Positions 54 through 15,313 of a stretch of 40,300 bases of DNA are shown here, piece by piece. A program made the position numbers and the translations under genes. The notes beneath the pieces are model-generated. The model ran no database searches and was not told where the DNA came from. It worked only from the letters and a program-made list of their open reading frames with translations. This stretch comes from Deltaproteobacteria bacterium (GTDB lineage Bacteria; Desulfobacterota; JADFXK01). The stretch is taken from contig JADFYC010000002.1 in the NCBI GenBank assembly GCA_015233295.1, forward strand, positions 1 to 40,300, given 5' to 3'. Numbering within the stretch: the stretch's first letter is position 1; every line of letters begins with the position of its first letter.

Positions 54-174
54 ATCATATAATACAACAAAAAAGCAGGACTAATATGGCATATTTTGGG
101 TATGCACTAAGTTAAGAAAAAACCTCTCGAAGAGTTTTGCAAGAGGCTCTGAGTTATGTGCTTATACCGCCCTG

Positions 175-864
175 TTGACCGGCGCCGCCATCCATCGGTC
201 TGGAATAAAAGATAAGTTGTGGGAACAAAGCAGTCAATCAGGTGGATTAATTGGTGTTAGAATATATCTATTCGGCCGTGCCTGGCACCTGGCTGAATAT
301 CATCCTCGGATAGCCCATAAGGGCAAGCCCAAAACACGTTATATCCCCGAGATCATAAAAAAGGATATCTGTGACCTGTTCAACGATTCGGTCAGGCCGG
401 AAATATTTGGTGTAGATTTCCCCAGGCTGGAAAACATCAACATCGATATTGCCGGTGAACCGGAAACATCCAAACTGGCTTGTTCCTTGGGGAGCATCAG
501 TCCCAGAAATGTAGTCGCGATTGGGGATGGCATCCATAACGATCCGACATTCCTGGGGCTGTCTTACACTGACAGCGAAGAGCAGCGGGTAGACTGGTTT
601 CAACACCTGGGTGAGAATCCCATTCCTTATCCGGAAAATGTAGATCAATCAGCCTTATCGCCTTCTATGGTGATTACTTCAACCGAACTGGCGAACCTCT
701 TCGCCAATAAATTTAACGAAATGAGCCTGGGCGATCCGCTGAAGAGGGGCCGGGTGGCCAGAAATTTTGTCGAGTATTTATTGGAATGCCAGATAGGTGG
801 TTATCGGGGCCATATCAAGGGAATTACATTAAATGCCGGCATGATTCCTGACCCAAAGAAATAA
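175..864 (+). CDS. Hypothetical protein; no signal peptide and no motif I recognise. First gene of the cassette.
   Basis: 690-nt ORF on the same strand as the four following genes. It has a TTG start and no in-frame ATG near the 5' end, so the start is uncertain. Antisense ORFs at 268-648 and 339-533 look like shadows. Confidence 0.45.
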   Translation: MTGAAIHRSGIKDKLWEQSSQSGGLIGVRIYLFGRAWHLAEYHPRIAHKGKPKTRYIPEIIKKDICDLFNDSVRPEIFGVDFPRLENINIDIAGEPETSKLACSLGSISPRNVVAIGDGIHNDPTFLGLSYTDSEEQRVDWFQHLGENPIPYPENVDQSALSPSMVITSTELANLFANKFNEMSLGDPLKRGRVARNFVEYLLECQIGGYRGHIKGITLNAGMIPDPKK

Positions 865-984
865 CCGCCGGAGACCCGCAGGTTAACTACGAGGGATTCG
901 GACGCGGTGTGATGACGAGTTACGCATCAGACGGTTGCTGGTCTTTGGGAGTCATGTTCACCCCCTTTTCAGGCAGAATAAATC

Positions 985-2235
985 ATGAAGTTTTTTTGCT
1001 ATCTGACCATGATCATCACTTTGTTGGCGGCCAACAGCCTGGCCAACGCGGTCGGCTGTGAGAAGTTGTACAGAGATTTGCCCAATTCATGGCCTGAATT
1101 CCATAAAGAATGCCTTAAGGGCGATGGATTCAATGATAGAATAATGGCATCTACGGTTGAATATTTTAAGGGGGCCACTAACGACGGAACGTACAGTTCT
1201 CCTGCACATGTAATTGACTTCTTATATGTGTTACGGGAAAAGGGAAAGGGCTGGAAAGATGTTCCCGAAGTATGCCAAATGGTATCGCTTTTGCTGAAAA
1301 GCAATAAATTGGATAAAAGTAAGAAAGCAGAAGTTGATGGGTTGAGGCTATGGTTTAAATGTGGGGAGTCGAAGTCATCCGTCACCTTTGACCCGAAGAC
1401 GGAAGGTGGCCAAACTCAAAAAAGTGATCGATCCGCCCCTTCGGATATCCCATTGACCGTCCCCAATTATTTAATACTCTCTATCTTGGAGAATGTCGTC
1501 ATCTTGGCCGCGCTGGGGTTCATATATTGGAGGAACCGGAGGGACATTAAAACGCTCGATGATAATATCATACATTTATCCAGGCACATTCAGAATCTTC
1601 AACTCCTTCCGGGGACGAATCATAGGGCAGAGCCACCCAATCGGATCCCGGAAATCTTTGAACTTCTTCGGCAGATTAAGGGCGATCTGGGTGTGATTAT
1701 AAATAGAGGAGAAGTGACTAAGACGATCGTATCCTCACGGGATTACCCCTCCGGTTACGGAGCCTCCATGTTCGGCACGAGCAGCTACGGGGGCACAAGC
1801 ACGATCACTACCGAACAGCCGGACTCTAACCAGAAGTCATTTCCGCAACGGTTGTTTGACGTCATGATTAGCTCCGGCAACCTGCAGAAAATCAAAGATA
1901 GCGTGAGTACGATACTGGCTCAAAGTAATAGAAATCCGAAGGTTTTTATAGGTCAACCGGTCAGGATTAAAGGGGAGGACGAAACTTACTATTTTCAGGA
2001 GGGATTACCTGAAGATGATGCCTTCGCCATGTTCGGTCTGGATGATCAAAAGTTGTTGATTCCGTGTCGGGTAAAAGACCTGCCGGCCTCCAACGTTTTG
2101 AAACAAGTATACGTCGTCCCTCCCGGACTGACCCGAGTCCAACGTATCGCCTCCCCCACCCAGATCATTCTTCGCAAATCATCCGCTGGAGGTATCGCCT
2201 ATTTCACCATCCAATCGAAAGGAACGATTGCATGA
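985..2235 (+). CDS. Hypothetical bitopic envelope protein: N-terminal signal peptide, an extracytoplasmic domain of about 150 aa, one TM helix and a C-terminal domain of about 220 aa
   Basis: ATG start. The signal-like N-terminus is MKFFCYLTMIITLLAANSLANA followed by VGC (a possible weak lipobox). The internal hydrophobic helix is YLILSILENVVILAALGFIYW followed by RNRRD. The stop overlaps the next start (ATGA at 2232-2235). Confidence 0.65.
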   Translation: MKFFCYLTMIITLLAANSLANAVGCEKLYRDLPNSWPEFHKECLKGDGFNDRIMASTVEYFKGATNDGTYSSPAHVIDFLYVLREKGKGWKDVPEVCQMVSLLLKSNKLDKSKKAEVDGLRLWFKCGESKSSVTFDPKTEGGQTQKSDRSAPSDIPLTVPNYLILSILENVVILAALGFIYWRNRRDIKTLDDNIIHLSRHIQNLQLLPGTNHRAEPPNRIPEIFELLRQIKGDLGVIINRGEVTKTIVSSRDYPSGYGASMFGTSSYGGTSTITTEQPDSNQKSFPQRLFDVMISSGNLQKIKDSVSTILAQSNRNPKVFIGQPVRIKGEDETYYFQEGLPEDDAFAMFGLDDQKLLIPCRVKDLPASNVLKQVYVVPPGLTRVQRIASPTQIILRKSSAGGIAYFTIQSKGTIA

Positions 2236-3257
2236 AAATATTCTTAGCCATAATTTTGTCCGTGGTCTTTGGGCCATTGCTGGTTTCTCTCGGATGGAGT
2301 CAGGTTTATGTGGAATACTCAAGGGAGATGGTCGGGGTGCTAAAGGATGGGGAGGCTGTGGAATTCGTCCGGCAGGTGGTGGCGGGACAGGGTACGGTGC
2401 TCTATGCCGGTCAGACCCCGGGTAGCGGGACGGAGCAGCAGGCGCCACTGGGGCCAAAGGGGGCTGATGCCTTGCTGGAATGCTTTAAGGAAGATCGTCT
2501 CGACGGCAAATGCCACGCCAGTTACCAACTGGAGCGCGGCCCGGAAGGACGTCACGCCGTCAACTTCCGGTTTATTAAAGAAGCAGGTGGACCTCTGGCC
2601 AGTGTTAGCGTTTTGTTCACCTCATACAAAGGCAAGATGAAAGAACTCAAAAGCATCTTGGCCGAAACGGGATTACCTTTCCATCTCATCCACCACACCA
2701 CATCCGCTGGAAACAAGCTCTTCTATCTGTCATTTGGTTCAGTTAAAGATACCGGCTTATTGGCCGGGATCCAGCCCTTTAGCCGAGACCTTGGGTTACA
2801 GACTTGCGGAGCGTCCTGTGACGGCAACCGTCGGGTCAATCTACTTCAGAAGTGTTTTCAAGGGCGTTATCCGGGCTTGATTCGAGGCATCCAATACGTT
2901 TACCCGGACAAGGACATCTTGCCCGATTTTATCGACTGTCCCAAAGGCACCTTCCCGCCGGAACCCAGTCTCACTGAGGACCTGATCTTGCGTTTGTCGG
3001 GGTCTGAGGAGAACTTTTACAAGGGGTTGGTCAAGTGTGTTGATTCTGTTCGGGGAAAGAAACCCAAGGACTCGAAGCCGGGGTCCGGGATCAAGCTTCA
3101 GATCAAAATGAGTGTGATGCGGGCTAACCCCGAGCGCTTCAACGCATTACCGGGTGAGGTGGCCGAGATGCTCACGTCATTGGCCGGAGAGAGCCGAGAA
3201 CAATATCTCAAACCCACGCAGAAGACCCTTTCCTTGACCATTTCCAATTGCCGTTAA
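2232..3257 (+). CDS. Hypothetical secreted or membrane-anchored protein (341 aa)
   Basis: The track ORF 2064-3257 carries an implausible Pro/Arg-rich extension. The in-frame ATG at 2232 gives MKIFLAIILSVVFGPLLVSLGWSQ (signal or anchor) and forms an ATGA overlap with the upstream stop, which suggests translational coupling. Confidence 0.65.
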   Translation: MKIFLAIILSVVFGPLLVSLGWSQVYVEYSREMVGVLKDGEAVEFVRQVVAGQGTVLYAGQTPGSGTEQQAPLGPKGADALLECFKEDRLDGKCHASYQLERGPEGRHAVNFRFIKEAGGPLASVSVLFTSYKGKMKELKSILAETGLPFHLIHHTTSAGNKLFYLSFGSVKDTGLLAGIQPFSRDLGLQTCGASCDGNRRVNLLQKCFQGRYPGLIRGIQYVYPDKDILPDFIDCPKGTFPPEPSLTEDLILRLSGSEENFYKGLVKCVDSVRGKKPKDSKPGSGIKLQIKMSVMRANPERFNALPGEVAEMLTSLAGESREQYLKPTQKTLSLTISNCR

Positions 3258-3423
3258 CGGGGACGGGATGAAGCAAAACGCGTAATAAACTTAAATATCA
3301 GTTACTACTGGCAATCATGGCCTGAGCGGCGCAGACGTCATCAGAGGCCGTCCGGGAGTTTCTTTTGGGCTGAGGGACCGGCGGCCCCGGCCCTGGACAC
3401 ATCGGCCTAACCTGGGTGAACAC

Positions 3424-5091
3424 ATGGATCTTATCCACTCGCTAGTTTTCGGCATGAAAAATTTTGACTTAGTTTCCTGGTATGAGATTTACACCAGACA
3501 CTCCCTCTTCTTTATCCATTTGATTTTGATTATTATTCTAATCGCTCACTGGTTTACCGCCGTATTCAATTATTTCAGCCGGAATAGATGGGAGCTTAGG
3601 CAGGAACCCGGCCATGCTGAAAGATATGTGCGCCGAATCGACCAGACCTATCACTTTTTCGCGGAACTATTTCTACTAACCGGCCTGGCCGGCACGGCCC
3701 TGGTCATTCAATACGTGCTGAAGTACGGGACGCTGGGCATCGAAGAAATCAGGTCCATCCGTCAGGGCATTGCCTTTAGCGCCGCCGGTATCGCCCTGGC
3801 CGTCGTCTGTTATTTGTTGCGCACGGTACTTCTATGGCTCTATCGAGGGGCGATGATCCAGATCTATCGCCAGCGGGCCAATCGGGAGACGGATCAAATA
3901 GATGAATTACGGCAAATCAGAATGCTCCTTTTTCAAATGGTGGAAGGCCAACAGATGCCGGCCACGCCTTTACAGGAGTTCACCCGGCAACTGGGGGAAC
4001 TTAAAGAAACTTTTAAGTCCAGCGAAATACAAAAGCAATTTGCTTCGGAACTGGGCAAGGTGATTGATCAGTGGCAGAACCAGTCGGAGGAGCGGCTGAT
4101 AGTGTTGAAAGAGGCCGTAATCCAGGCCACCGGGATGTTGCAGGAAACGCAAAAATTTATGGACCGGCAGATCGAACACTCCGACAGGTTCATGAGGCAA
4201 TTGTCCGAGATGAAATTAGAGGTATCCCACACCGGGACCGGCATCCGGCAAAATATGGAAGAGCTGGTCCAGGATATTACCCAGGTCCGGCAACTGTTTA
4301 TTGAAGAATTAAAGCAAATTCCTGTAATTTTAAAAGATCACAGCGAGACCATGATCACTTCTATGACCCAGTCGCAGGGAAATATCCTGACCCGTTTCAC
4401 CGAACAGACCTCGGCCTATTTGCAATGCCATCGGGGGTATATCGACGAGAACCGAGAGCTGATCAGGGCCTCCATCGATATTGCGGTAGCCAAATCTTAC
4501 GAATTGCTGCAGCAGTCGGTGGAGGGATTAATGGCCTCCTTGCATCACCGGTTAGAGCAGGAACACCAGGCCTATCTTGATAAACTAGGTAAATATCATG
4601 AGTTGATCGAAAGCCTGGAAGGTTCTGTGGACGTCCGGGTCCAGGAGGCCGCCCAAATCTTCAGGACGGAACTGGAGACCATCCTGCACTATCATCGTAC
4701 CCTGATGAGTCAAAACAAAGAGCGCGATGACGGCCTACTGCAGGCCTGGACCGGCTCCTTCCTGCAACTGAATAAGCTGGTGGAAGGGCAGTTTATCGAC
4801 AAATTCCAGGAGAGCACCAACGGGCTGAATAATGCCCTGGTTGGCTGCTGCACGACTGTGGTCAGGTCTCATAGCTCCTACCAGTCCTTGACTGATCAAT
4901 TGATCAGAGCCCAAACGACGACGCAAAAGGCTATGGAATCCAATGTCAAACTTTTGGCCGCCGAAAGGCAGTCCATATCCCGGTTAGCATCTAAAATCCA
5001 AGAGATGGACGCGGCAGTCCGAGTCATCGGTGATCCCTACCAGGTGGTCAAGCAGGCCATGGTCAATCTGCTCAACAAGAAGATCTGGTGA
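3424..5091 (+). CDS. MotA/ExbB/TolQ-family-like channel protein with a long C-terminal coiled-coil tail (ZorA-like architecture)
   Basis: There are three predicted TM helices within residues 25-140. TM2 (FLLTGLAGTALVIQ) resembles the GLLGTV signature of MotA/ExbB, and TM3 (GIAFSAAGIALAVVCYLL) resembles the AL.TT..GL..A helix. Residues 145-555 are Q/E/L/R-rich with heptad character. A MotB-like gene follows directly. Confidence 0.6.
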   Translation: MDLIHSLVFGMKNFDLVSWYEIYTRHSLFFIHLILIIILIAHWFTAVFNYFSRNRWELRQEPGHAERYVRRIDQTYHFFAELFLLTGLAGTALVIQYVLKYGTLGIEEIRSIRQGIAFSAAGIALAVVCYLLRTVLLWLYRGAMIQIYRQRANRETDQIDELRQIRMLLFQMVEGQQMPATPLQEFTRQLGELKETFKSSEIQKQFASELGKVIDQWQNQSEERLIVLKEAVIQATGMLQETQKFMDRQIEHSDRFMRQLSEMKLEVSHTGTGIRQNMEELVQDITQVRQLFIEELKQIPVILKDHSETMITSMTQSQGNILTRFTEQTSAYLQCHRGYIDENRELIRASIDIAVAKSYELLQQSVEGLMASLHHRLEQEHQAYLDKLGKYHELIESLEGSVDVRVQEAAQIFRTELETILHYHRTLMSQNKERDDGLLQAWTGSFLQLNKLVEGQFIDKFQESTNGLNNALVGCCTTVVRSHSSYQSLTDQLIRAQTTTQKAMESNVKLLAAERQSISRLASKIQEMDAAVRVIGDPYQVVKQAMVNLLNKKIW

Positions 5092-5200
5092 ACTATCCGG
5101 CGCTCATTCAAAGCGGGAGGCTCCGTTATGTGCGTTCCCGAAGGTTCTGCCCAGGCCTCTGAATATTGTAGCATCCCCTTTAGTCCCGACGAGATAGACT

Positions 5201-6049
5201 ATGCTTAAGATGGAGCGAAACAGCATTTCCTGGATAGGCATTGCCGACTTATTTTTGTTCTTGTTCCTTTTTTTTCTCGCCGCCTACATCATGGCTGCGT
5301 CCGAAAACAAGACTACCACGGATTGCTCCGGGAAATTGCGCCGGGTGGAAAATGAGAATAGGGAATTAAAGAAAAGATTAGCCGAACTGGAGGACGCCCT
5401 GCACCGCTGCCAGGCGGACCTCAGCCGCTGTCGGGAGGATCTGCGTCAATGCCGGGATGACAATATCCGGCTGGGCCAGGGAAGATTCATCTCCGATAGC
5501 TTCGGAGCGGTTATCGGCCAGGCCCTAAATGCCTTGAATGAATTGAAGCAGCAAATGGAGGCGCGCAATTTTCCGGTTCAGATTGACCGGCGGCCCGACA
5601 GTTTGTTCTTTGACATGCAGGTGTTCTTCCGACACGAGGGTTTGGATGTAACCAAAAGAGAAGAACGCGAGGCGATTATGATTATCGGGAAGGAATTCCG
5701 CCGGATCCTGGATCAAAGGCATACCTTTAAGCTTAGGGAAAGCGAAGAACACACCTTCTATCTGCACGAGGTGATGCGGATCGTCATCGAAGGCCACACG
5801 GATGAAACAAAGAAGAACGAAATGGCCAACTTCTACTACTCCGCCGGCCGGGCCCAGACCGTCCTGGATATCTTGATGAAGGAGTGTGGTTTGAAGCCGC
5901 CAAAGTATAGGATCAGCACCGCCTCTTATGCCGAATTCGGCCGGAAACCCAAATCGTCTCCTGATGATAGCGCAGACGCCATTGACCAAAAAATGCGCCG
6001 GGTGACCATCAGCATCGTCCCCGATTATGACCGGTTGCCGAGTAAGTAG
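5201..6049 (+). CDS. MotB/ZorB-like protein: TM helix with a conserved Asp, a periplasmic coiled coil and an OmpA-like peptidoglycan-binding domain
   Basis: The N-terminal SWIGIADLFLFLFLFFLAAYIM resembles the MotB YADFMT..MAFF plug/TM with the proton-relay Asp. The C-terminus carries OmpA-family motifs: RIVIEGHTDE, N..YSAGRAQTV, RRVTISIVP. An alternative ATG start is at 5210. Confidence 0.75.
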   Translation: MLKMERNSISWIGIADLFLFLFLFFLAAYIMAASENKTTTDCSGKLRRVENENRELKKRLAELEDALHRCQADLSRCREDLRQCRDDNIRLGQGRFISDSFGAVIGQALNALNELKQQMEARNFPVQIDRRPDSLFFDMQVFFRHEGLDVTKREEREAIMIIGKEFRRILDQRHTFKLRESEEHTFYLHEVMRIVIEGHTDETKKNEMANFYYSAGRAQTVLDILMKECGLKPPKYRISTASYAEFGRKPKSSPDDSADAIDQKMRRVTISIVPDYDRLPSK

Positions 6050-6107
6050 GGTGGTGGTGCGGCTGTTGTTACCTTTCTATATGGAGATCATCACAGGCAA
6101 GCACTCC

Positions 6108-7466
6108 TCACCCCATAACCCGTCGCGCCGCGGCCACTTTGGCTTCTACCAGGGATTGGAGGCGCAGGAGTTCGGCCTCGGTGTCGGCCTCGAAACGCAT
6201 GACAATGACCGGTTGAGTGTTGGAAGCCCGGACGAGACCCCAGCCATGATCGAAGATCGCCCGGACGCCGTCTATGTCGATTATCCGGTAATCCTTGCGC
6301 AGCTCCTCCTTGACCGCCTCGACCAGGGCGAATTTGAGATGGTCGGGGCAATCGACCCTGATTTCCGGGGTGGTAAATCCTTCCGGCACGTCGGCCAAAT
6401 ATTCGGATAGGGGCTTGTTGTCCCGGGACATGATCTCAATCAGCCGGAGCGAGGCATATAAGGCGTCGTCAAAGCCCAGGAAGCGGTCGGCAAAGAACAT
6501 GTGCCCGCTCATCTCCCCGCCTAAAGCGGCGTCTTCCTCAAGCATCTTCTGTTTCATCAGGGAGTGACCCGTCTTCCACATCACCGCCCGGCCACCGTGC
6601 TGTTCAATGTCCCGGAAAAGCTTGTCTGAGCACTTCACCTCACCCAATATGGCCGCTCCAGGCCGCCGAGCCAGAATCTCCCGGGCAAAGATGACCAACA
6701 ACCGGTCCCCATAAATGACCCGGCCCCGTTCATCAACCACTCCCACCCGATCTCCATCGCCGTCAAACCCGATGCCCACTTCCAGGTGCTGCGACTTAAC
6801 CAGGGCGACCAGGTCCACAATGTTGGCCATTACGGTGGGGTCGGGCGGATGGTTGGGGAATCGGCCGTCCACATCGCAATAGATGCCGGTGGCCTTGATG
6901 CCCAGGGCCTGATACGCGGCCAGGGCCATGGGACCACCGGCGCCGTTCCCGGCATCGACCCCGATGGTTATCGGTCGCTGGATATGGATATTCTTGACCA
7001 GGTAATCCAGGTAGGGCGTGGCCACATCGGCCTGGGTGACGAACCCTTTTCCTTCGGCGAAATCACCTTTTTCAGCAATCATCCGGATTTCTTGAATCTC
7101 CGCCCCGGAAATAGTGTGCGGCCCGGTGCAGATTTTGAATCCATTATATTGAGGCGGGTTATGGCTGGCCGTAATCATTACCCCGCCTTGTTTCTTAAAG
7201 GCATGAATGGAAAAATAGAGCATGGGAGTAGTGACCAGGCCGACATCGGTTACCTGTATCCCGGCTCCGGTTAGACCCTGGGTCAACAGGTCCACATAAC
7301 GGTCTGAGCTGAGCCGGCAATCGTGTCCTAAGGTAATATCATTCACTCCCCTGGAAAGATAATAGGTACCCATGGCCCGGCCGAGTCTGATTACCCCGGC
7401 GTCATCCAATTCTTTATCGACAACGGCTCTAATATCGTATTCTCTAAAAATTACCGGATCAATCAT
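6108..7466 (-). CDS. Phosphomannomutase/phosphoglucomutase (alpha-D-phosphohexomutase family)
   Basis: It has the catalytic phosphoserine loop TASHNPPQYNGFK, the metal loop FDGDGDR and the sugar loop GGEMSGH. The track starts at TTG 7478, but ATG 7466 (MIDPVIFREYDIR) is preceded by GGAGG 5 nt upstream, so I prefer 7466. Confidence 0.9.
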   Translation of the reverse strand: MIDPVIFREYDIRAVVDKELDDAGVIRLGRAMGTYYLSRGVNDITLGHDCRLSSDRYVDLLTQGLTGAGIQVTDVGLVTTPMLYFSIHAFKKQGGVMITASHNPPQYNGFKICTGPHTISGAEIQEIRMIAEKGDFAEGKGFVTQADVATPYLDYLVKNIHIQRPITIGVDAGNGAGGPMALAAYQALGIKATGIYCDVDGRFPNHPPDPTVMANIVDLVALVKSQHLEVGIGFDGDGDRVGVVDERGRVIYGDRLLVIFAREILARRPGAAILGEVKCSDKLFRDIEQHGGRAVMWKTGHSLMKQKMLEEDAALGGEMSGHMFFADRFLGFDDALYASLRLIEIMSRDNKPLSEYLADVPEGFTTPEIRVDCPDHLKFALVEAVKEELRKDYRIIDIDGVRAIFDHGWGLVRASNTQPVIVMRFEADTEAELLRLQSLVEAKVAAARRVMG

Positions 7467-7491
7467 GCCTTCCTCCAAGAATTATTAAGAA

Positions 7492-7764: not shown

Positions 7765-9381
7765 TCAGCTTGCCGCCGCACCCAGCTTTGGGATCGTCAC
7801 CGTCGGGAACAGGGACAGATCCGTATGGGGAATGAATTTAGCCGCGGCGAACATGGTCATGAATTCGGCATTGACGTTCAACTCCACGTAGGTGATCTTG
7901 TCGCAGATCTGGGGGATGCGGGCCCGCTTTTCGGCCGAGAGCAGGGCCAGAGCCGCACCGGTTAAGGAGCTATTCATCAACGGTTGGTACTTGTTTCGGG
8001 GCAGGTCCGGGATCATGCCGATGGTGATGGCCATCTCCGGGTCGATATAGTTTCCGAATGTACCGGCCACGTAGAATTTAGCCATGTCGTGAATGTCCAA
8101 CCCCACAGTGGACGGGATGATCCGGAGAATGGTGTACATGGCCGCTTTGGAGGCCAGCAGGATGGTAATGTCTACTTCCGATACGATAACATCCCGGCCA
8201 TGCCCCGACTCCGCGGCCGGCACCACCCGATAGCCCCAGATACCTTCGTCCTCCACCAGGCACGGACAACCACTCTCAAGGATGAACTTGCCCTTGGAAT
8301 TGATGATGCCGCAGGTAAACAGTTCGGCCAACAAGTCAATCAAACCCGAGCCGCAAATGCCGATGGGCTTGATGTCACCTATAACCGAATAGGACGGTGT
8401 CAAGGTCCGGCGGTCGATGCGAATGCGCTCAATGGTCCCTGGTCCGGCCATCATCCCCATCTTGGCCACGCCGCCCTCTAATGCCGGTCCGGCCGCTCCG
8501 GCGCAGGCCACCAGCCAGTCCTTGTTACCCAGGACCACCTCGGCATTGGTCCCCACGTCAACCAGGATGGACACGTCATCGCCCTCGTTCAATCCCGAGG
8601 CCAGGATCCCGGCGATGAGGTCGCCCCCAAAATAACTGCCCACATTGGGCATGATCAGGCACGGGGCGGCGGGATGGATGTCGATGCCCAACTCTGCAGC
8701 CGAGGTGAGATCCGGCCGGTTGACCACCGGAATGTAAGGTTCCCGGCAGATATGGAAGGTATCCAGCCCCAGGAAAAAATGGGTCATGGTGGTGTTTCCG
8801 GCCACGCACAGGGAATAGATATTATCTGCTTTTATCCCGGCGGTCCGGACCAGATCATGGATGACCTGATTGAAACCATCGATCACCGCCCGGCGGAGGA
8901 GAAGATGCCCTTCGTTTTTGGCGGAGCAGTGGATCCTGGTAAGGATATCCGCACCATAAGCGACTTGCGGATTAACCGCCGAAACCTGGCTGATGACCCG
9001 GCCGACGCTCACGTCCAGGAGGGCAAAAACAATCGTGGTCGTCCCCAGATCTATGGCCAGGCCATAATTAGCCGCAGTGGTGTCACCGGCCTCCAGATCG
9101 ATAATCTGGTAACCGCCCTCTTCAGACCGGGCCAGGGTAATCGTGGCGTCGAAATCGGCGTCCCGAAGCCTGGCCGAAAGTTCCGCCAGTCGCGAAAGCG
9201 GCGACCAGACGTGGTTCAGGTCGTAAGCGACGCGCAGTGCCCGCTTAATTCGGTCCACGTCCGCGACGTTATCCCCCAGGGCGGGCTTGGGTGGGAGAAT
9301 ATGGTATTTTTCAGCCAGCGGCGACAAGGCCGCGTCCTTAAGAATTAGACTCCCTTGATCTATCGAATGTTCCTTCATCAT
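7765..9381 (-). CDS. ASKHA-fold ATPase, DUF4445 family (RACo-like corrinoid reductive-activase C-terminal module) without an N-terminal ferredoxin domain
   Basis: It has actin/hexokinase-like phosphate loops: GLAIDLGTTTIVFALLD, ILVDVGTNAEVVLG and CAGAAGPALEG. Its length and order match DUF4445 proteins. There is no Cys cluster in the first 100 aa. Confidence 0.75.
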   Translation of the reverse strand: MMKEHSIDQGSLILKDAALSPLAEKYHILPPKPALGDNVADVDRIKRALRVAYDLNHVWSPLSRLAELSARLRDADFDATITLARSEEGGYQIIDLEAGDTTAANYGLAIDLGTTTIVFALLDVSVGRVISQVSAVNPQVAYGADILTRIHCSAKNEGHLLLRRAVIDGFNQVIHDLVRTAGIKADNIYSLCVAGNTTMTHFFLGLDTFHICREPYIPVVNRPDLTSAAELGIDIHPAAPCLIMPNVGSYFGGDLIAGILASGLNEGDDVSILVDVGTNAEVVLGNKDWLVACAGAAGPALEGGVAKMGMMAGPGTIERIRIDRRTLTPSYSVIGDIKPIGICGSGLIDLLAELFTCGIINSKGKFILESGCPCLVEDEGIWGYRVVPAAESGHGRDVIVSEVDITILLASKAAMYTILRIIPSTVGLDIHDMAKFYVAGTFGNYIDPEMAITIGMIPDLPRNKYQPLMNSSLTGAALALLSAEKRARIPQICDKITYVELNVNAEFMTMFAAAKFIPHTDLSLFPTVTIPKLGAAAS

Positions 9382-9431: not shown

Positions 9432-9542
9432 GGTCCGGGCATTGAACTCTCCAGAGAACGAAGCTAATATTTTATTTTTGATGTTGAATTAGGGACCTCA
9501 TCCTCAGACCTTTAATTCCCTTTATTACTTATTGAAAACGAC

Positions 9543-9583
9543 CGGCAACGAGTAGCCGCAACAAGCAACAAACAACCAGCAAC
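9543..9583 (-). repeat. Heptamer array in the opposite orientation (NNGCAAC units on the + strand)
   Basis: The units read cggcaac gagtagc cgcaac aagcaac aaacaac cagcaac, with one 6-nt unit. The array lies about 45 nt downstream of the zinc-ribbon gene stop. Confidence 0.7.
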
Positions 9584-9630
9584 GTGACCAGTTTTCGGAC
9601 CCATGGCAGACCTTAGTTTCGGCCGGCTGA

Positions 9631-9888
9631 TCACAGGGGAATGATGCCGGCCGGAGCCAGGTTCTTTTCGATTTTGTCTCCAACGCTGGCGCCGCAGTGA
9701 ACACACAAATATTCATACTTGTCACCCTCTGGAATCACCAGCAAGAGTCTCTTGCGGACAGGTACTGCCTGCCGGCACCTGGGGCAATACAGGGCTGAGG
9801 CCTCGAATTGTTCAAAGGCTTCCTGTGGGGCTCGATTCTGGACTGGAAATGGCTGCCCCCCAATCCCGGCCTTCCGATACGACACCAT
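9631..9888 (-). CDS. Small zinc-ribbon protein (CPRC...CVHC), function unknown
   Basis: The internal ATG at 9888 (MVSYRKAG...) has GGGAGGA 8 nt upstream, so I prefer it to the track start at 9915. Two CxxC pairs are separated by 26 residues. Confidence 0.5.
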   Translation of the reverse strand: MVSYRKAGIGGQPFPVQNRAPQEAFEQFEASALYCPRCRQAVPVRKRLLLVIPEGDKYEYLCVHCGASVGDKIEKNLAPAGIIPL

Positions 9889-10292
9889 TGTTCGATTCCT
9901 CCCTGACAGATACATTCTAAAATAAGTCTCCAGCAGTCCGAGCCAACCAGGCCAAAACGGGTGATTAGGAATCCCCGGCTAGGCCGAGCGTTATTATACC
10001 TCAAACAGCCGAGGCTGCCTACCCCAAATATAAGGTTTCTGCGGCGCGGACCGAATAAATTCATGGACTACGTCCGGGCCGGGAGGATCAATCGTGGCCG
10101 GAATCGACAAAATAATCAGTCATTGTATGTAGCAGCACGTATTGCTGATTTATTTTTTTCAGTTAGCAACCTTGAATTTCTTCCTTGCCTGTTTGGGGGC
10201 AAGGAGGATATATTGCCGACTCAACATGTTGAATAGACCGTGGATTAGAATGGCTACTGTTAAATAGTGTAATCATCAATGGGGGTTCGCCA

Positions 10293-11255
10293 ATGTTCAG
10301 TAGTAAACGCGTGTTGGTCACCGGTGGCGCCGGTTTCTTAGGCTCGCACCTGTGTGACCGGTTGGTCGCGGAGGGGCATGATGTGTTATGTCTTGACAAT
10401 TTTTTCACCGGCAATAAAAATAACATAATTCATCTAATCGGCCGGCAAAATTTTGAACTAATCCGCCATGACCTGGTCCACCCCATTTATATAGAGGTTG
10501 ATGAAGTATATAACCTGGCTTGCCCGGCTTCACCGATCCATTACCAGTTTAATCCGATTAAGACCATCAAGACCAATGTCATGGGCGCCATCAACATGTT
10601 GGGCCTGGCTAAGAGGGTAAAAGCCAAAATCCTCCAGGCGTCCACCAGTGAGATTTACGGTGATCCCCATGTTCATCCGCAACGTGAAGATTATTGGGGA
10701 AATGTTAATACGATCGGCATCAGATCATGTTATGATGAGGGCAAACGCTGTGCGGAGACCCTGTTCTTCGATTATCATCGCCAGAGCAAATTGAACATCA
10801 GGGTGGCCAGGATTTTCAATACTTATGGTCCCAGGATGCACCCCAATGACGGCCGCGTCGTCAGCAATTTTATCTTACAAGCTCTAACCAACAGAGATAT
10901 AACCATCTATGGCGATGGGACCCAAACCCGTTCTTTTTGCTATGTGGATGACATGGTCGAGGGACTGGTCAGGCTAATGAATGGCCCGGATGAGTTTGTG
11001 GGACCGGTGAATCTGGGCAACCCTTCCGAGTTTTCCATTGAAGACCTGGCTCGGAAGATCATCGGCTTGACCGGATCGAATTCGGAGCTGGTTTTTAAGC
11101 CGCTTCCCCAAGACGACCCCAGACAACGCCGTCCCGACATCAGCCTGGCCAACCAAAATCTAGGATGGACGCCCAGCGTGCCCTTGGAACACGGTTTGTC
11201 CAAAACCATCGAGTATTTTGAGCAACTATTAAAAGATGAACCCGGGTTGAGATGA
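10293..11255 (+). CDS. UDP-glucuronate decarboxylase (UDP-xylose synthase-like SDR, NAD-dependent epimerase/dehydratase family)
   Basis: It has the Rossmann motif [29 protein letters not shown], the catalytic YDEGKR and STSEIYGDP are characteristic of the UXS/ArnA-decarboxylase clade. Confidence 0.85.
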
Positions 11256-11364: not shown

Positions 11365-13437
11365 ATGACGAACACGATGTGGCGATTATTCATCTTGTTA
11401 TTGTCTTTCGGCCTGCTCTGCCCGCCGAGCTCCCCGGCCGCACCGGTCACTCCCACCATGGTTGAACAAGTAGGACAAACGCAGCTCACGGCCCAGAATC
11501 AGGTTGCCTGCGCGGACCAGGCCAAACGGGGAATCGCGGGGTATCAAGATAGAACCGTCGCCTCCATCGGTGAACTCAAGAATAGCCGGGGCGACACCTT
11601 GGCCTATGTTTTAACTTTGTCTCCCACGGGTTATATCGTCATCTCCACCGATACCGACATCACGCCGATTATCGCTCAATCGCACGACAGCAATTTCATC
11701 TGGGAAGATTCTCCGGCAAATGTCTTGCTCCACCTGGTCACTCTAGACATGGAAAACCGACTTAAAGCCCTACCCGAGACCGGCGCCGCGGTAAAACAAG
11801 CCAATAACACCCGCTGGAATAATTACGTCGCCGCCGACGGCGCGCTCGTGTCCCAAATTACCAGAGCCGCCACCTACGGGCCCCTGCTCAGCCCCCCGAC
11901 ATGGAATCAAGATTCGCCCTATAACGGCTACTGCCCCATGGACCCCGTAACCCAAACTAGATCATTAACCGGTTGCGTGGCCACCGCAATGGCCCAGATT
12001 GTCAATTATTACGAGAGGCCTGTCTCAGTCACCTTCCTCGCTACCGATAATTACACCACGGACACAAGGAAGATCGACATTACCGCCTCCACCGCCGATA
12101 TCGCCGGCATCACCTATCCCGCCGGCGGTGATATGGCCGCTCGCCTGTCTTACGCCTGCGGGGTTTCTGTTAAAATGGACTATACCAGCGCCTTTTCCGG
12201 CGCCTATACGAAGGACCTGGCCTGGGCCCTCAGATACAGGTTTGGTTATGTCTCCGCCATTTATAAAGACACCTTCAACGATTCGATTTATCCCATCATC
12301 CAGAATAACATAAAGAATCGACAGCCGGTGAATTTAGCCATCACCGACATCTCCATCAGCGGGCACTCCATTGTCTGCGACGGCTATAACGACGGCTCCG
12401 GTCAGTATCATCTGAACTTCGGCTGGGGCGGGACCACGGATGGTTGGTATAGTCTGCCGTACGGCATGCCCGAACAATACATGCTTATTGATAACGCCGT
12501 GACGGATATCAGGCCGAACGGTACGCCGATTCGATATGATTTTGACGGGAACGGACAATCCGACATGCTATGGTATAATTCGTCAACCGGCCAAAGCGTG
12601 GCCTGGTTGATGAACGGAACGTCCATCGCCTCCTACGGCAAGATTAACACAGTCAGCGATTTAAATTGGAAAATCCAAGGGGTAGGTGATTTCAACGGCG
12701 ACGGCAAAGCCGATATCCTCTGGCGCAATGAAGCTACCGGCCAAGTCTGGATGTACCTGATGAACGGGGCGTCCATCGCTTCCCAGGGATCTGTCGGCAC
12801 GGTCGACGACTTGTCCTGGCAAATTCAAGGCGTGGCTGATTTCAACGGCGACGGCAAGGCCGACATTCTGTGGCGCAATGTGGCCAATGGGGATGTCTAT
12901 ATCTGGTTGATGAACGGTATGATTCCGTCCTCTAAGTCTTCCGTCGGCGCGGTCGGCAACCTGGACTGGCAAATTCAAGGCGTGGGTGATTTCGACGGCG
13001 ACGGCAAGGCCGACATCCTCTGGCGCAATGTGGCCAATGGGGATGTCTATATCTGGTTGATGAACGGTATGATTCCGTCCTCTAAGTCTTCCGTCGGCGC
13101 GGTCGGCAACCTGGACTGGCAAATTCAAGGCGTGGGTGATTTCGACGGCGACGGCAAGGCCGACATCCTCTGGCGCAATGTGGCCGATGGCGAGGTCTAT
13201 ATTTGGCTGATGAACGGTATGACCCCGTCCTCTAAGTCTTCCGTCGGCGTGGTCGGCGACTTGAACTGGAAGATTCAAGGAATCGGTGATTTCAACGGCG
13301 ACGGCAAGGCCGACATTCTGTGGCGCAATTCCTCCACCGGGCAGGTCTGGATGTACCTGATGAACGGGGCGTCCATCGCTTCCCAGGGGCCGTTAGCCAT
13401 CATCAACGACTCGAATTGGCAAACCCAACTAAAGTGA
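11365..13437 (+). CDS. Secreted peptidase C10 (streptopain/SpeB-like cysteine protease) with an N-terminal inhibitor-like prodomain and six C-terminal FG-GAP/VCBS-type repeats
   Basis: A strong AAGGAGGAG RBS precedes the start and the N-terminus is a signal peptide. The catalytic Cys motif is SPYNGYCP...TGCVATAMAQIVNYY. The His region is GHSIVCDGYN...YHLNFGWGGTTDGWYSL, which matches SpeB GHAFVIDG...YHVNWGWGG.SDGFF. These are followed by six 50-aa repeats of the form DF[ND]GDGKADILWRN. Confidence 0.9.
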   Translation: MTNTMWRLFILLLSFGLLCPPSSPAAPVTPTMVEQVGQTQLTAQNQVACADQAKRGIAGYQDRTVASIGELKNSRGDTLAYVLTLSPTGYIVISTDTDITPIIAQSHDSNFIWEDSPANVLLHLVTLDMENRLKALPETGAAVKQANNTRWNNYVAADGALVSQITRAATYGPLLSPPTWNQDSPYNGYCPMDPVTQTRSLTGCVATAMAQIVNYYERPVSVTFLATDNYTTDTRKIDITASTADIAGITYPAGGDMAARLSYACGVSVKMDYTSAFSGAYTKDLAWALRYRFGYVSAIYKDTFNDSIYPIIQNNIKNRQPVNLAITDISISGHSIVCDGYNDGSGQYHLNFGWGGTTDGWYSLPYGMPEQYMLIDNAVTDIRPNGTPIRYDFDGNGQSDMLWYNSSTGQSVAWLMNGTSIASYGKINTVSDLNWKIQGVGDFNGDGKADILWRNEATGQVWMYLMNGASIASQGSVGTVDDLSWQIQGVADFNGDGKADILWRNVANGDVYIWLMNGMIPSSKSSVGAVGNLDWQIQGVGDFDGDGKADILWRNVANGDVYIWLMNGMIPSSKSSVGAVGNLDWQIQGVGDFDGDGKADILWRNVADGEVYIWLMNGMTPSSKSSVGVVGDLNWKIQGIGDFNGDGKADILWRNSSTGQVWMYLMNGASIASQGPLAIINDSNWQTQLK
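12538..13437 (+). repeat. Six tandem 150-bp coding repeats (FG-GAP units). Units 12838-12987 and 12988-13137 are nearly identical.
   Basis: Unit boundaries at 12538, 12688, 12838, 12988, 13138 and 13288 all start with gat ttc/ttt. Units 3 and 4 differ at only a few nucleotides. Units 2 and 6 share an identical stretch, gtctggatgtacctgatgaacggggcgtccatcgcttcccagg. Confidence 0.9.
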
Positions 13438-13533
13438 GTCCATGCGCCGCCGCGGTGTCGAATAATTGGGCCCGCCGCCGATCGCCCCGTCATCTGAGGA
13501 TTAAATTTCGTAACCTATCGGCATAATCATATG

Positions 13534-13565
13534 CCCTGCCGGGTCGCTCCGGTGGGGCTTTTTTT
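13534..13565 (+). terminator. Rho-independent terminator downstream of the C10 peptidase gene
   Basis: The stem ccctgccgg (13534-13542) pairs with ccggtgggg (13549-13557) over 9 bp including two G-U pairs. The loop is gtcgct. A run of 7 T follows at 13559-13565. Confidence 0.7.
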
Positions 13566-13697
13566 GCGCAGGTTGTGAATCCGGCCCGGGCGAGGTCCAC
13601 TCTGTCCACGACCGCGCGCGGCCGGTCAGGGTGTGGAAGCCGCCCGGCGATGTTGAAATTTAGCAATATTTTAATCAGTTATTATATCAAAATTACT

Positions 13698-13726
13698 TTG
13701 CCGGACCCACCGATTCATGTTATATA
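13698..13726 (+). promoter_or_regulatory. Candidate promoter TTGCCG-N17-TATATA upstream of the sugar transferase
   Basis: The hexamers are at 13698-13703 and 13721-13726 with a 17-nt spacer. This would place the heptamer array at 13750-13791 in the 5' UTR. Pattern match only. Confidence 0.25.
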
Positions 13727-13749
13727 GCAAAAAATCAAATGACATTGTG

Positions 13750-13791
13750 CCGCAACACGCAACCCGTAACACGCAATTCGAACCCCGTAAC
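13750..13791 (-). repeat. Heptamer array of six in-phase units, read as NNGYAAC on the + strand
   Basis: The units read ccgcaac acgcaac ccgtaac acgcaat tcgaacc ccgtaac. The array ends 35 nt upstream of the sugar transferase ATG. Confidence 0.8.
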
Positions 13792-13826
13792 ACGATTGAC
13801 CGACACCGAAAAGGGAACCTGTTAGA

Positions 13827-15248: not shown

Positions 15249-15257
15249 CAATATAAT

Positions 15258-15299: not shown

Positions 15300-15313
15300 T
15301 CATAGGTGAAGGT

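Follow-up and report, generated by a model that had tools for sequence, protein, structure and literature searches.

Five co-directional open reading frames lie at positions 175–864, 985–2235, 2232–3257, 3424–5091 and 5201–6049 of the window, the whole 40,300-nt stretch of contig that was analysed. Genes 2 and 3 are joined by an ATGA overlap at 2232–2235, which is seen directly in the sequence as the initial annotation had claimed. Its description of the block as tightly packed, however, holds for this junction only, the other gaps being 120, 166 and 109 nt. On the right the block meets, as described, a convergent housekeeping gene, which encodes a phosphoglucomutase/phosphomannomutase (6108–7478, minus strand). 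We also confirmed that neither a helicase nor a nuclease occurs in the five-gene block or after it. A PADLOC profile search of the window revealed no known Zorya effector alongside the gene 4/gene 5 pair, and no defence genes were seen in the window to the right of the cassette.

Genes 1 to 3 and the contig-end breakpoint

The left edge of the block is AT-rich over bases 1–150, as had been noted, but rather than delimiting the cassette it marks a breakpoint inside a large gene at the contig end. These bases are unrelated to the cassette and do not recur elsewhere in the window or at any of the loci retrieved. Alignment with the sister locus L011 showed homology only from about base 151, in mid-gene, at ~95% identity, and none before it. 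Gene 1, initially taken for a 229-aa protein, is instead the 3′ remnant of this gene (151–864, plus strand; last ~229 codons), and its TTG start at 175 was placed mechanically. It aligns solely with the last ~229 residues of its intact relatives, matching the C-terminus of a 1471-aa protein from a Kentrum-type locus at E=6e-33 and residues 170–398 of the L011 open reading frame at 94% identity; the intact gene of L027 encodes 1328 aa.

The relatives of gene 1 contain the ASKHA motifs GIDFGT and VDVGGGTTDVAV, and all 38 PDB profile matches of the large protein were ASKHA proteins, the best being MreB (E=4e-4). A YGGTGAG string is present, and no tubulin Pfam match was obtained. Judged from its sequence, the intact large protein carries a predicted actin/Hsp70-fold (ASKHA) ATPase domain, which is absent from the window copy. 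The three upstream proteins previously described as unrecognisable are a giant ASKHA-ATPase gene, truncated here, together with genes 2 and 3.

Because the large gene is cut at the contig end, the window copy is incomplete or mis-assembled; the breakpoint may reflect a genuine rearrangement or stem from the assembly. One explanation is that this copy is decaying or no longer functional, its large first gene having been lost by rearrangement, and the onset of homology in the middle of a codon series, after unrelated DNA, in a gene of 1328–1471 aa when intact, fits such a loss. However, the breakpoint lies only 150 nt from the contig end, a place at which assemblies are often chimeric or collapsed. 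Genes 2 to 5 are full-length, with 71–94% identity to sister copies and without frameshifts, and the existence of pair-only loci elsewhere implies that genes 4 and 5 may work without the large gene. We regard a non-functional remnant as improbable.

Gene 2 (985–2235, plus strand) encodes a putative bitopic accessory protein of 416 aa, assigned from hydropathy, cysteine positions and synteny. A signal peptide leads into a Cys-containing periplasmic N-domain (~aa 23–160, from hydropathy), which is followed by a transmembrane (TM) helix at aa 161–182 (nt 1465–1530) and a cytoplasmic C-terminal region of ~230 aa. No family match was found in any library searched, including Pfam, PADLOC and NCBIfam. 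Homologs adjoin the A/B pair (the counterparts of genes 4 and 5) in L011, L012, L027, L005 and L001/L014, and in P0013, L013 and L019 the A subunit begins with a fused version of the N-domain (aa 22–103; E ~1e-8). Gene 3 (2232–3257, plus strand; 341 aa) encodes an exported protein that bears a signal peptide and contains eight Cys, all invariant in a five-sequence alignment; the ATGA overlap indicates translational coupling with gene 2. It had no match in Pfam, PADLOC, NCBIfam or PDB. A search of 5.8 billion proteins yielded only four homologs, and the gene is kept in L005 (45% identity) and in the Kentrum-type locus (32%).

The gene 4/gene 5 pair

The assignment of gene 5 (5201–6049, plus strand; 282 aa) as a MotB/ZorB-type B subunit is solid at the level of sequence. 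The protein matched the PADLOC ZorB1 model over aa 18–227 (E=1.6e-13) and scored 30.2 bits with Pfam OmpA, above its gathering threshold of 27.2, and hhalign aligned its family with ZorB2 (probability 76%, E=2.3e-5). NCBIfam MotB-family and MotD models matched weakly, at E values of 1.9e-5 to 0.03 and far below their cut-offs. The architecture agrees with the initial description: a short cytoplasmic N-terminus is followed by a TM helix (aa 11–33) that bears Asp16 (WIGIADLF; nt 5246–5248), a periplasmic coiled-coil stalk (~aa 43–95) in which Cys70, Cys77 and Cys84 are spaced as heptads, and a C-terminal OmpA-like peptidoglycan-binding domain (~aa 125–275) with IEGHTD, SAGRA and RRVTISI. The TM Asp is invariant in the B subunits of all 17 loci (17/17), and W11, D16, L17, G198, H199, N210 and R217 are invariant even when ZorB2 is included.

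Gene 4 consists of a membrane module (aa 1–140; 3424–3843, plus strand), delineated by hydropathy, an AF2 model and Foldseek, and a cytoplasmic alpha-helical tail (aa 141–555; 3844–5091, plus strand), recognised by ZorA tail profiles and periodicity. Hydrophobic helices span aa 21–52, 77–100 and 114–141 and precede the ~410-aa helical tail. The N-terminus is predicted to be periplasmic and the 27-aa basic TM1–TM2 loop cytoplasmic, an N-out topology that the natural fusions and the signal peptides of homologs support. The three TM helices, GLAGTA in TM2 and GIAFSAAGIALAV in TM3 are there as reported initially, but no profile detects these supposed MotA/ExbB-like signatures. TM1 itself is placed at ~aa 28–50. 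TM2 (~77–100) contains the motif AELFLLTGLAGTA and TM3 (~114–140) the motif GIAFSAAGI; family-invariant residues include E81, G87–G90, Q96 and S119, and the Thr of GLAGT occurs in 5/18 family members, with Ala in the remainder. A TM proline is typical of MotA/ExbB/TolQ; direct reading of the sequence shows none in gene 4.

The initial annotation had staked its reading on a MotA/ExbB or ZorA match for gene 4, and it came close to failing here. The membrane module is recognised neither by Pfam MotA_ExbB nor by any ZorA model, and only the ZorA2/ZorA3 tail models match gene 4, whereas genuine ZorA2 passes both Pfam MotA_ExbB (28.4 bits) and, over its full length, the ZorA HMMs. No MotA/ExbB/ZorA membrane-module match was found in gene 4 or in any family member, including by an exhaustive search of 1.84 billion proteins. 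The AF2 model of the membrane module (pLDDT 88, pTM 0.78) had TolQ, ExbB or MotA as all of its top nine Foldseek matches, although none of the fold matches is significant (E ≥0.3; TM-scores 0.3–0.5). Its top structural neighbours were TolQ 9kpz_D (probability 0.87–0.91) and ExbB 6tyi_A (0.72–0.84); the nearest PDB entries also included PomA and the Shewanella ZorAB structure 8vvn_C (ZorA; 0.85, rmsd 4.6 Å over 85 columns). Profile–profile alignment of the module covered TM3 alone (P=0.01–0.04).

The tail matched the PADLOC ZorA2 model PDLC00637 at E=4e-5, with aa 200–390 aligned to model positions 202–389. The ZorA2/ZorA3 tail models matched every family member tested, and hhalign aligned the start of the tail with E. 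coli ZorA2 (E=1.6e-4). The heptad character previously ascribed to the tail was not borne out, its hydrophobic periodicity being 3.60 residues, not 3.50, and that of ZorA2 3.66. Apolipoprotein-like matches were obtained from both tails, and other coiled-coil models (LmuB, LeoB) also appeared. At the sequence level, the gene 4 tail resembles ZorA tails weakly but consistently.

These data bear on an alternative in which gene 4, instead of being a stator A subunit, is an apolipoprotein- or coiled-coil-like membrane scaffold that, with gene 5 as wall anchor, forms a static tether without rotation, its likeness to ZorA being convergent. The missing membrane-module profile match is in line with it, fold matches of three-helix membrane bundles are intrinsically non-specific, and the tail matches, which extend to apolipoprotein, LmuB and LeoB, could reflect a shared amphipathic-helix composition. 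However, the invariant membrane Asp, set in a W-x4-D-L motif as in ZorB2, is hard to explain in a passive anchor, and the best-conserved residues of gene 4 are polar or small and lie within TM2 and TM3 (E81, GLAG, Q96, S119). Stator A subunits top both fold searches despite the far more numerous other helical membrane proteins. Moreover, the known homology of ZorA2 and TolQ (P=0.011) scored no better than gene 4 against ZorA2 (P=0.011–0.041) in the same hhalign set-up. A static tether is unlikely on balance, and we treat gene 4 as the putative A subunit of a 5:2-type motor.

Family distribution and genomic neighbours

The family is rare, with ~9 representatives among 1.84 billion proteins, and is patchy across phyla. 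It is confined to a few Deltaproteobacteria MAGs and giant sulfur bacteria and is concentrated in those of the Beggiatoaceae type (Parabeggiatoa, Thioploca, Marithrix). A and B lie next to each other in 16/16 loci that have sequence downstream of A, with a gap of −8 to +20 nt in 10/16; in L004, a 331-aa tail-like open reading frame separates them. Conservation of the upstream trio with the pair, which the initial annotation had expected, holds in part: the large gene, gene 2 and gene 3 are syntenic in three lineages but not in others, and at least eight other loci have no match to any of them. Three of these have readable flanks; there the pair is by itself or carries a fused gene 2 domain, and two of the three are set among housekeeping genes. 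The Thioploca pair lies alone between ychF, gyrB and nuoM, and the L021 pair, on a 75-kb contig, lies among CheW, MCP, BamD, MoaE, RlmA and YhdP.

The defence-island setting that the initial annotation had proposed to look for was found at one locus, where a relative sits between PDC-M38/AbiLi-like and PDC-S01 genes, but at other loci the pair occurs by itself between housekeeping genes. Further family loci have NACHT-type or ORC-like NTPases or toxin–antitoxin genes as neighbours. One MAG carries two paralogous copies in differing contexts, and flanks vary among close relatives. No family homolog was found in phage and plasmid records. The defence-island locus, the NTPase and toxin–antitoxin neighbours, the paralogs with differing flanks, the rarity and the patchiness suggest conflict-like traits.

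The same wall-anchored, ion-driven ZorAB-like machine could instead have a housekeeping role. In that case it would connect the peptidoglycan and the inner membrane with some structure in the cytoplasm, such as a system of actin-like filaments, and might serve to organise the envelope, act in cell–cell or filament mechanics, or drive the gliding of large or filamentous bacteria. The Thioploca and L021 settings, the flank of the window itself, which is made up of housekeeping and signalling genes, the concentration in giant sulfur bacteria, the actin/MreB-like ATPase domain (not a nuclease) of the large accessory protein, and the lack of phage or plasmid copies all favour such a role. Nevertheless, wider occurrence and stronger conservation would be expected of a core machine, whereas this family is extremely patchy, extends to unrelated Deltaproteobacteria MAGs and has accessory genes that vary between loci. 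Its paralogs within one MAG sit in different contexts, and one locus lies inside a clear defence island. We consider a housekeeping role possible, though rather doubtful.

Taken together, the B-subunit profiles, the layout, topology and tail of the A subunit, its AF2 neighbours and the A–B pairing make it probable that genes 4 and 5 represent a new family of ZorAB-like motors that is highly divergent and has a novel accessory module. The most likely role is to sense breaches of the envelope or to act in conflict (anti-phage) defence, and this is the weakest step of the argument. The reading that joins the two, a highly divergent ZorAB-like ion-driven inner-membrane complex serving most likely in such sensing or defence, is tentative, with slightly less than an even chance of being right. 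The pair does not belong to any defined Zorya type and, as the initial annotation had allowed for, falls in none of the well-characterised stator families. The new Zorya type suggested there is not established, because the accessory set is limited to three lineages and the membrane module has no ZorA profile match; its broader wording, in which a Zorya-like motor has another output or a function outside defence, is still fair.

Proposed mechanism and comparison with known systems

In the proposed complex, five gene 4 subunits would encircle a gene 5 dimer. Ions would flow via Asp16 of gene 5, past the invariant Ser119, Glu81 and Gln96 of gene 4, and would drive rotation of the gene 4 ring and its tail bundle against the wall-anchored gene 5 axle, whose OmpA-like domain would be borne on a cysteine-stapled periplasmic coiled-coil stalk. 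The tail could reach up to ~60 nm if fully extended and, as in Zorya, may pass an envelope event on to cytoplasmic partners. The periplasmic domain of gene 2 would dock at the periplasmic N-terminus of gene 4, since the two form one polypeptide in Parabeggiatoa-type loci. Gene 3 would be the exported, disulfide-rich part of the accessory or output module in the clade of the window, and the 1300–1470-aa cytoplasmic actin/Hsp70-fold ATPase protein would replace the known Zorya nucleases and helicases.

MotAB and PomAB share with gene 5 the TM Asp near the cytoplasmic face and the C-terminal OmpA-like peptidoglycan-binding domain; their A and B genes are likewise adjacent, and MotA and PomA are among the fold neighbours of gene 4. 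In MotA, four TM helices are combined with a large torque-generating interface in the cytoplasm (PMC12505986), whereas gene 4 has three TM helices, a long tail and no torque-interface domain, and no flagellar genes lie near the window pair. ExbB and TolQ resemble gene 4 in their three TM helices and N-out topology. However, their ~100-aa cytoplasmic domain is missing in gene 4, which has its 410-aa tail instead, ExbD and TolR lack the OmpA-like domain of gene 5, and the window cassette encodes no TonB- or TolA-like protein. No profile relationship to Tol was found (gene 4 TM module against TolQ, P=0.5; gene 5 family against TolR, P=0.086).

FtsZl1 operons encode a cytoskeletal-type NTPase with OmpA-domain and other membrane proteins and have been proposed to form membrane-associated machines; no stator-like pair was described in them (Makarova and Koonin 2010, PMC2875224). 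The window cassette is similar in that a large cytoskeletal-type NTPase is encoded together with OmpA-domain and membrane proteins, but the NTPase is FtsZ-like in those operons and of the actin/Hsp70 fold in the window family, and the cassette has no vWA protein or GTPase partner.

Zorya type I ZorAB, like genes 4 and 5, combines a wall-anchored B dimer carrying a TM Asp with a long-tailed A subunit, and ZorB1 models are the best profile matches of gene 5. In the cryo-EM structure of EcZorA, TM1 and TM2 are separated by a membrane-proximal cytoplasmic domain of ~80 residues that holds a Ca2+ site, and the tail is ~500 aa long; the peptidoglycan-binding domain of EcZorB is joined to its TM helix without a linker (PMC11946911). 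In gene 4 the corresponding domain is replaced by the 27-aa loop, gene 5 has a long stalk, and ZorC and ZorD are absent from the cassette.

In Zorya type II, the core ZorA2/ZorB2 (E. coli O157 ECs_5258/ECs_5257) is followed by the HNH nuclease ZorE, whereas neither ZorE nor another nuclease follows the window pair, whose accessory genes are upstream and unrelated to known Zorya genes. The gene 5 family also differs from ZorB2, which has no stalk, in its 60–130-aa periplasmic coiled-coil stalk with conserved Cys. In both systems, however, the A gene directly precedes the B gene, and ZorB2 and gene 5 share the W-x4-D-L TM motif and the OmpA-like domain. The experimentally studied ZorA2 (550 aa) and gene 4 (555 aa) both have three TM helices within ~115–140 aa, a short TM1–TM2 loop, a G-x-L-G-T motif in TM2 and a helical tail of ~410–435 aa with a periodicity of 3.6–3.67.

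Truncated cassette at the contig edge

Five co-directional open reading frames (ORFs) occupy the left end of the window, a 40.3-kb contig in the MAG of an uncultured deltaproteobacterium: g1 (175-864), g2 (985-2235), g3 (2232-3257), g4 (3424-5091, the A subunit) and g5 (5201-6049, the B subunit). The initial annotation had described a tightly packed five-gene block. We indeed found that g2 and g3 share an ATGA overlap and that the gene next to g5 is a convergent phosphoglucomutase/phosphomannomutase gene on the right. However, the other intergenic gaps measure 120, 166 and 109 nt, and g1 is not a complete gene. Homology to the sister locus L011 starts at about base 151, mid-way in a longer ORF, and the truncated g1 is adjoined by 150 bases of AT-rich DNA (bases 1-150, ~25% GC by eye) that have no relation to L011. 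A third MAG (L027) carries an intact cassette, in which a 1328-aa gene is followed by g2, g3 and g4, and a Kentrum-type genome encodes a large protein of 1471 aa; g1 aligns with the last ~229 residues of both. Judged from these alignments, g1 is a fragment of the large gene, and what had been taken for a cytoplasmic protein of 229 aa is instead the C-terminal remnant of a 1328-1471-aa protein. The window copy of g1 is thus unsuitable for analysis as a stand-alone protein. The junction at bases 1-150 may mark the breakpoint of a rearrangement, or it may be an artefact of assembly; a check for a repeated-element origin of these bases found no second copy. The sole good sigma-70-like match in the region lies within them, at 30-58.

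The hallmarks of ASKHA (actin/Hsp70/sugar-kinase fold) ATPases are a phosphate-1 (DxGxT/S) and a phosphate-2 (DxGGGTxD) motif. The intact relatives of g1 contain GIDFGT and VDVGGGTTDVAV and gave weak MreB, FtsA and Hsp70 matches in Pfam and NCBIfam. In a PDB profile search with the large protein, all 38 of the 38 matches were actin/Hsp70-fold ATPases, MreB being the best (E=4e-4). Both the motifs and the fold similarity of an ASKHA ATPase are therefore present, but only in the intact relatives, as the g1 of the window falls wholly C-terminal to this domain. The other ~900 residues of the large protein matched nothing known. A conserved CASSYGGTGAGV string in its N-terminal part (L027 166-4152; Kentrum-type locus L014 1-3993) recalls the GGGTG(S/T)G loop of tubulin/FtsZ. 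A tubulin/FtsZ-like N-terminal domain, suggested by a YGGTGAG string in the large protein and by FtsZl1-OmpA operons (PMC2875224), was not adopted, given that there was no Pfam tubulin match and that just ~60 residues precede the motif in L027.

The remaining genes of the window have housekeeping and signalling functions (epimerase, sugar transferase, hybrid kinases, GGDEF proteins, EF-G, MoeA, PAS sensors and TPR proteins). An Rfam search of the window gave no match, and promoter- and terminator-like sites were no more numerous in it than in shuffled controls. A RACo-type ASKHA protein (reductive activator of corrinoid enzymes) is encoded on the minus strand at 7765-9381 and has no relation to the cassette ASKHA protein. 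The gene at 11365-13437 codes for 690 aa with FG-GAP repeats and a streptopain-like Peptidase_C10 domain, and it includes four 150-nt tandem repeat units (12640-13367). On the minus strand at 25471-32255, the gene for a 1559-aa sensor (dCache, HAMP and multiple PAS domains) overlaps the start of that for a 714-aa PAS hybrid histidine kinase by 40 nt; with further response-regulator-GGDEF and hybrid-kinase genes nearby, this is a dense signalling neighbourhood. A 378-aa ORF at 33417-34553 had no Pfam match at E<=1e-5. The sister MAGs are nDJH13bin5 and nDJH2bin9, and bins with the nDJH prefix have been cited as magnetotactic-bacteria genomes (10.1101/2022.03.28.486042). A magnetosome-related explanation was dropped, as no magnetosome-like genes occur anywhere in the window.

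A divergent stator-like pair

The initial reading of g5, as a protein with a MotB-like transmembrane (TM) Asp and an OmpA-type domain, was borne out. It scored 30.2 bits on Pfam OmpA (threshold 27.2) and matched the PADLOC ZorB1 models at E=1.6e-13 over aa 18-227, TM region included, and it had weak matches to the NCBIfam MotB-family, MotD and Pal models. We aligned seven family members with the type II ZorB (ZorB2) annotated in the Sakai genome of E. coli O157. W11, D16 and L17 in the TM helix and G198, H199, N210 and R217 at the peptidoglycan-binding site were invariant throughout this alignment, and the motif SWIG[IF]xDLF, Asp included, was found in 17 of 17 loci. These sequence comparisons demonstrate that g5 is a B subunit of the MotB/ZorB type, with a single predicted TM helix, the Asp and an OmpA-like peptidoglycan-binding domain. 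A stalk of ~60-130 residues of Cys-containing periplasmic coiled coil separates the OmpA-like domain from the TM helix in g5 and in most of the family; the stalk of the L004 B subunit is much shorter. Cys70, Cys77 and Cys84 of g5 are exactly heptad-spaced within this coiled coil (aa 43-95, window 5327-5485), and the last of the three is a Cys in all seven aligned family members. The spacing hints at a disulfide bond that staples the two chains of the B dimer together.

The A subunit g4 has three hydrophobic helices (aa 21-52, 77-100 and 114-141), a basic TM1-TM2 loop of 27 aa and, after TM3, ~410 helical residues. Some other A subunits of the family carry N-terminal signal peptides, and in the Parabeggiatoa-type loci P0013, L013 and L019 the periplasmic N-domain of g2 is fused to the A-subunit N-terminus (E ~1e-8). 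The fusion links g2 physically to g4, and together with the signal peptides it places the N-terminus of g4 in the periplasm. Thus g4 possesses the ZorA architecture, namely three TM helices, an external N-terminus and a long cytoplasmic alpha-helical tail. E81, G87-L88-A89-G90, Q96 and S119 are invariant in TM2 and TM3.

ZorA has a membrane module of the MotA/ExbB/TolQ family, which PF01618 or the ZorA HMMs pick up over TM1-TM3. As a control, E. coli ZorA2 scored 28.4 bits on MotA_ExbB (PF01618) and E=1e-302 on the PADLOC ZorA2 model. The membrane module of g4 behaved differently: MotA_ExbB was absent from its Pfam matches even at E<=1, NCBIfam gave no match, and the PADLOC ZorA matches were confined to the tail. 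Likewise, the precomputed Pfam annotation of family members was empty ('-'), no stator chain was recovered when a family profile was run against the PDB, and among 1.84 billion representatives, searched exhaustively by HMM, there were 11 hits, ~9 of them true relatives and none bridging to MotA/ExbB families. None of these searches placed the g4 TM module in MotA/ExbB/ZorA by sequence profile. The MotA/ExbB-like signatures originally annotated in g4 are accordingly seen by no profile, and the Thr of the GLAGT motif occurs in only 5 of 18 family members.

In 5:2 motors, TM hairpin helices of the A subunit line the B-subunit helix. Structure-based comparison of g4 gave a ranking of neighbours that was not statistically significant. 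The AF2 model of the TM module was a confident one, with a pLDDT of 88 and a pTM of 0.78. The first Foldseek model was diluted by the floppy tail; the search was therefore repeated with the TM module alone, and the ranking was cleaner, though still not significant, with TolQ, ExbB or MotA as the top 9 of 350,542 PDB chains (best E 0.31). A subunits of 5:2 motors headed both searches (TolQ 9kpz_D, probability 0.87-0.91; ExbB 6tyi_A, 0.72-0.84), and MotA, PomA and type I ZorA (8vvn_C, probability 0.85, rmsd 4.6 Å, 85 columns) were also among the neighbours; no match in these PDB searches reached E<=1e-3, and TM-scores were 0.3-0.5 (TMq 0.33-0.52). We also ran hhalign on the g4 TM module against TolQ and against a ZorA2-type TM alignment of 48 sequences. 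The part that aligned was TM3 alone (GI--AF--SAAGI vs GLKTAFITSIVGM; P=0.01-0.04), in a set-up of low power, since the known ZorA2-TolQ pair, as positive control, itself reached just P=0.011.

The tail resembles that of ZorA and may be related to it. The g4 tail matched PADLOC ZorA2 at E=4e-5 and collinearly, with aa 200-390 on model positions 202-389, and all seven other members tested matched ZorA2/ZorA3 tail models (E 1e-6 to 7e-4). At the start of the tail, hhalign of g4 with ZorA2 gave E=1.6e-4 (probability 50%, 21 columns). Shared amphipathic-helix composition could lie behind part of these matches, because apolipoprotein and LmuB/LeoB models were matched as well. The tail had been credited with heptad character, but its hydrophobic periodicity is 3.60 in g4, 3.60-3.64 across the family and 3.66 in ZorA2, not 3.50 (z=2-16 against shuffles, with at least 7.5 in 7 of 8 members). 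Between the A and B genes of L004, a 331-aa ORF (9512-10507) duplicates the A-subunit tail and is 47% identical to the neighbouring one, and P0014, a related sequence, has an internal tail duplication. It seems from these two cases that tail length evolves by modular duplication.

Distribution, accessory genes and genomic context

The family is extremely rare, with 7 hits among 5.8 billion clustered proteins. Genome and metagenome scans recovered it from two groups alone: sister MAGs of the Deltaproteobacteria, and giant sulfur bacteria or their relatives, represented by Candidatus Parabeggiatoa, Thioploca, Candidatus Marithrix and a genome of Thiotrichales/Kentrum type. The A and B genes of 5:2 motors are neighbours, as a rule within one operon. 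Here, A-B pairing is strict: wherever there is sequence beyond the A gene (16 loci), a g5-type gene follows, in L004 after the intervening tail-like ORF. The two genes lie -8 to +20 nt apart in 10 of these loci and 48-116 nt apart in five, the window clade included. One MAG, nDJH13bin5, holds two paralogous cassettes (L010 and L011) on different contigs with different flanks, whose g4 proteins are 91% and 85% identical to that of the window; an ORC/CDC6-like ATPase gene follows one of the two.

The conservation of the three upstream genes beside the pair is partial. They are kept in three lineages, the window clade (L010, L011, L012 and L027), a JGI contig (L005) and the Kentrum-type locus (L001/L014), whereas at least eight loci have no match to g2, g3 or the large gene. 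That no family would be recognized for g2 and g3 agrees with our searches of Pfam, PADLOC, NCBIfam and the PDB, none of which gave a match for either. By topology, g2 has a periplasmic N-terminus and a cytoplasmic C-terminus, and g3 is an exported protein with 8 invariant cysteines. It is likely that g2, g3 and the giant ASKHA ATPase form the accessory or output module in the window clade. In the Kentrum-type cassette, two additional genes (L014 6755-9944) lie between g3 and the A gene and are probably a mobile insertion; they encode a 663-aa protein without a match in any library or the PDB and a 365-aa YhgA-like Transposase_31/DUF4351 protein.

The absence of a Zorya effector after the pair, also noted initially, was confirmed: PADLOC gave no match at all for g1-g3 and their homologs, no ZorC/ZorD, ZorE or ZorF/ZorG was found in any related locus, and the gene downstream in the window is the phosphoglucomutase gene. 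In one locus, L004, the pair and the extra tail-like ORF sit in a clear defence island (5202-7051 and 13011-16491), with PDC-M38A/B (E=6e-109 and 1e-56) and PDC-S01 (E=2e-133) as flanking genes. Here PDC-M38A/B is an AbiLi-like ATPase and DUF3226 pair and PDC-S01 an AAA_14/DUF4143 protein; the island also holds a Schlafen/AlbA_2-HATPase_c_4 protein with a weak pAgo-associated match. Other copies are flanked by NACHT/WD40 (NACHT-type NTPase), ORC-like ATPase or toxin-antitoxin genes. Carriage on mobile elements was rejected after searches of IMG/VR viral contigs and PLSDB plasmids yielded no relative. A defence role for the g4/g5 family is plausible because the family is patchy, paralogous and modular, one of its loci lies in a defence island, and NTPase or toxin-antitoxin genes adjoin others. 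In Zorya itself, protection from phage hinges on the proton-motive force and on the Asp of ZorB. However, Thioploca (L015) and L021 have a bare pair amid housekeeping genes, which speaks for a cellular role, and defence thus stays a candidate function. The right flank of the window consists of housekeeping genes too.

Proposed mechanism and comparison with known motors

The best-supported reading is that g4 and g5 form a very divergent ZorAB-like complex. In such a complex, a wall-anchored B dimer with its ion-binding Asp would be surrounded by a ring of three-TM A subunits bearing the long cytoplasmic tail, and the invariant S119, E81 and Q96 of g4 are candidates to face the B-subunit Asp. 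By analogy with Zorya, the assembly may be 5:2 (A5B2), with ion-driven rotation and signalling through the tail (PMC11946911, PMC11890865). Taken together, the pair is stator-like, tailed, divergent and rare, and its accessory set is novel; the window copy is incomplete at the contig edge.

A bolder and rather unlikely proposal is that the cassette represents a new class of 5:2-type ion-driven motor, with an A subunit beyond every MotA/ExbB/ZorA profile and a ZorA-like tail that has as partners, in place of nucleases, a giant ATPase of the actin/Hsp70 fold, a bitopic adaptor and a sensor protein that is exported. Were it true, the cassette would be a Zorya-like immune system, the fourth and one with a different mechanism, or else a transducer of force or signals from envelope to cytoskeleton in giant sulfur bacteria and some Deltaproteobacteria. 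Should g4 and g5 make up a true 5:2 motor, the ZorAB design of wall-anchored axle, rotating ring and long cytoplasmic tail would extend far beyond the sequence space of MotA/ExbB and Zorya models, and defence-finding tools would overlook such pairs. The design would in that case also be wired to an actin/Hsp70-fold ATPase rather than to nucleases, and the bare pairs of the giant sulfur bacteria would be a natural test of an effector-less tailed motor and bear on what the ZorA tail transmits.

Among known motors, type II ZorA of E. coli is similar to g4 in design. Like g4, ZorA2 has three TM helices within ~115 aa, a short loop and GILGT in TM2, and its 435-aa tail and total of 550 aa give the same compact design; unlike the membrane module of g4, it matches PF01618 and the ZorA HMM. 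In EcZorB, no linker lies between the TM helix and the peptidoglycan-binding domain fused to it (PMC11946911). By contrast, g5 has a long Cys-containing stalk, which ZorB2 lacks in the same alignment, and the type-defining Zorya effectors are absent beside g4/g5. The pair does not belong to Zorya types I-III, because the ZorA membrane-module profile test fails, no Zor effectors are present and the B-subunit stalk is foreign to ZorB. The initial interpretation stands in part, as regards a ZorAB-like pair with no known effector; the profile test, the missing effectors and the stalk place this pair outside any defined Zorya type.

The well-characterised stator families, in which the pair might also have fallen, fit no better, as it lacks the features that define the flagellar, Ton and Tol stators. 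ExbD/TolR-type B subunits are without an OmpA domain and act with a TonB or TolA partner. Compared with them, g5 has an OmpA-like domain (g5 family vs TolR, P=0.086), no TonB- or TolA-like gene is present, and the topology of g2 is opposite. Flagellar MotA (MotAB/PomAB) has four TM helices and a large cytoplasmic torque-generating interface (PMC12505986), whereas g4 spans the membrane three times, joins TM1 to TM2 by a loop of 27 aa and is without a torque-generating domain. Its N-out topology is that of ExbB, TolQ and ZorA.
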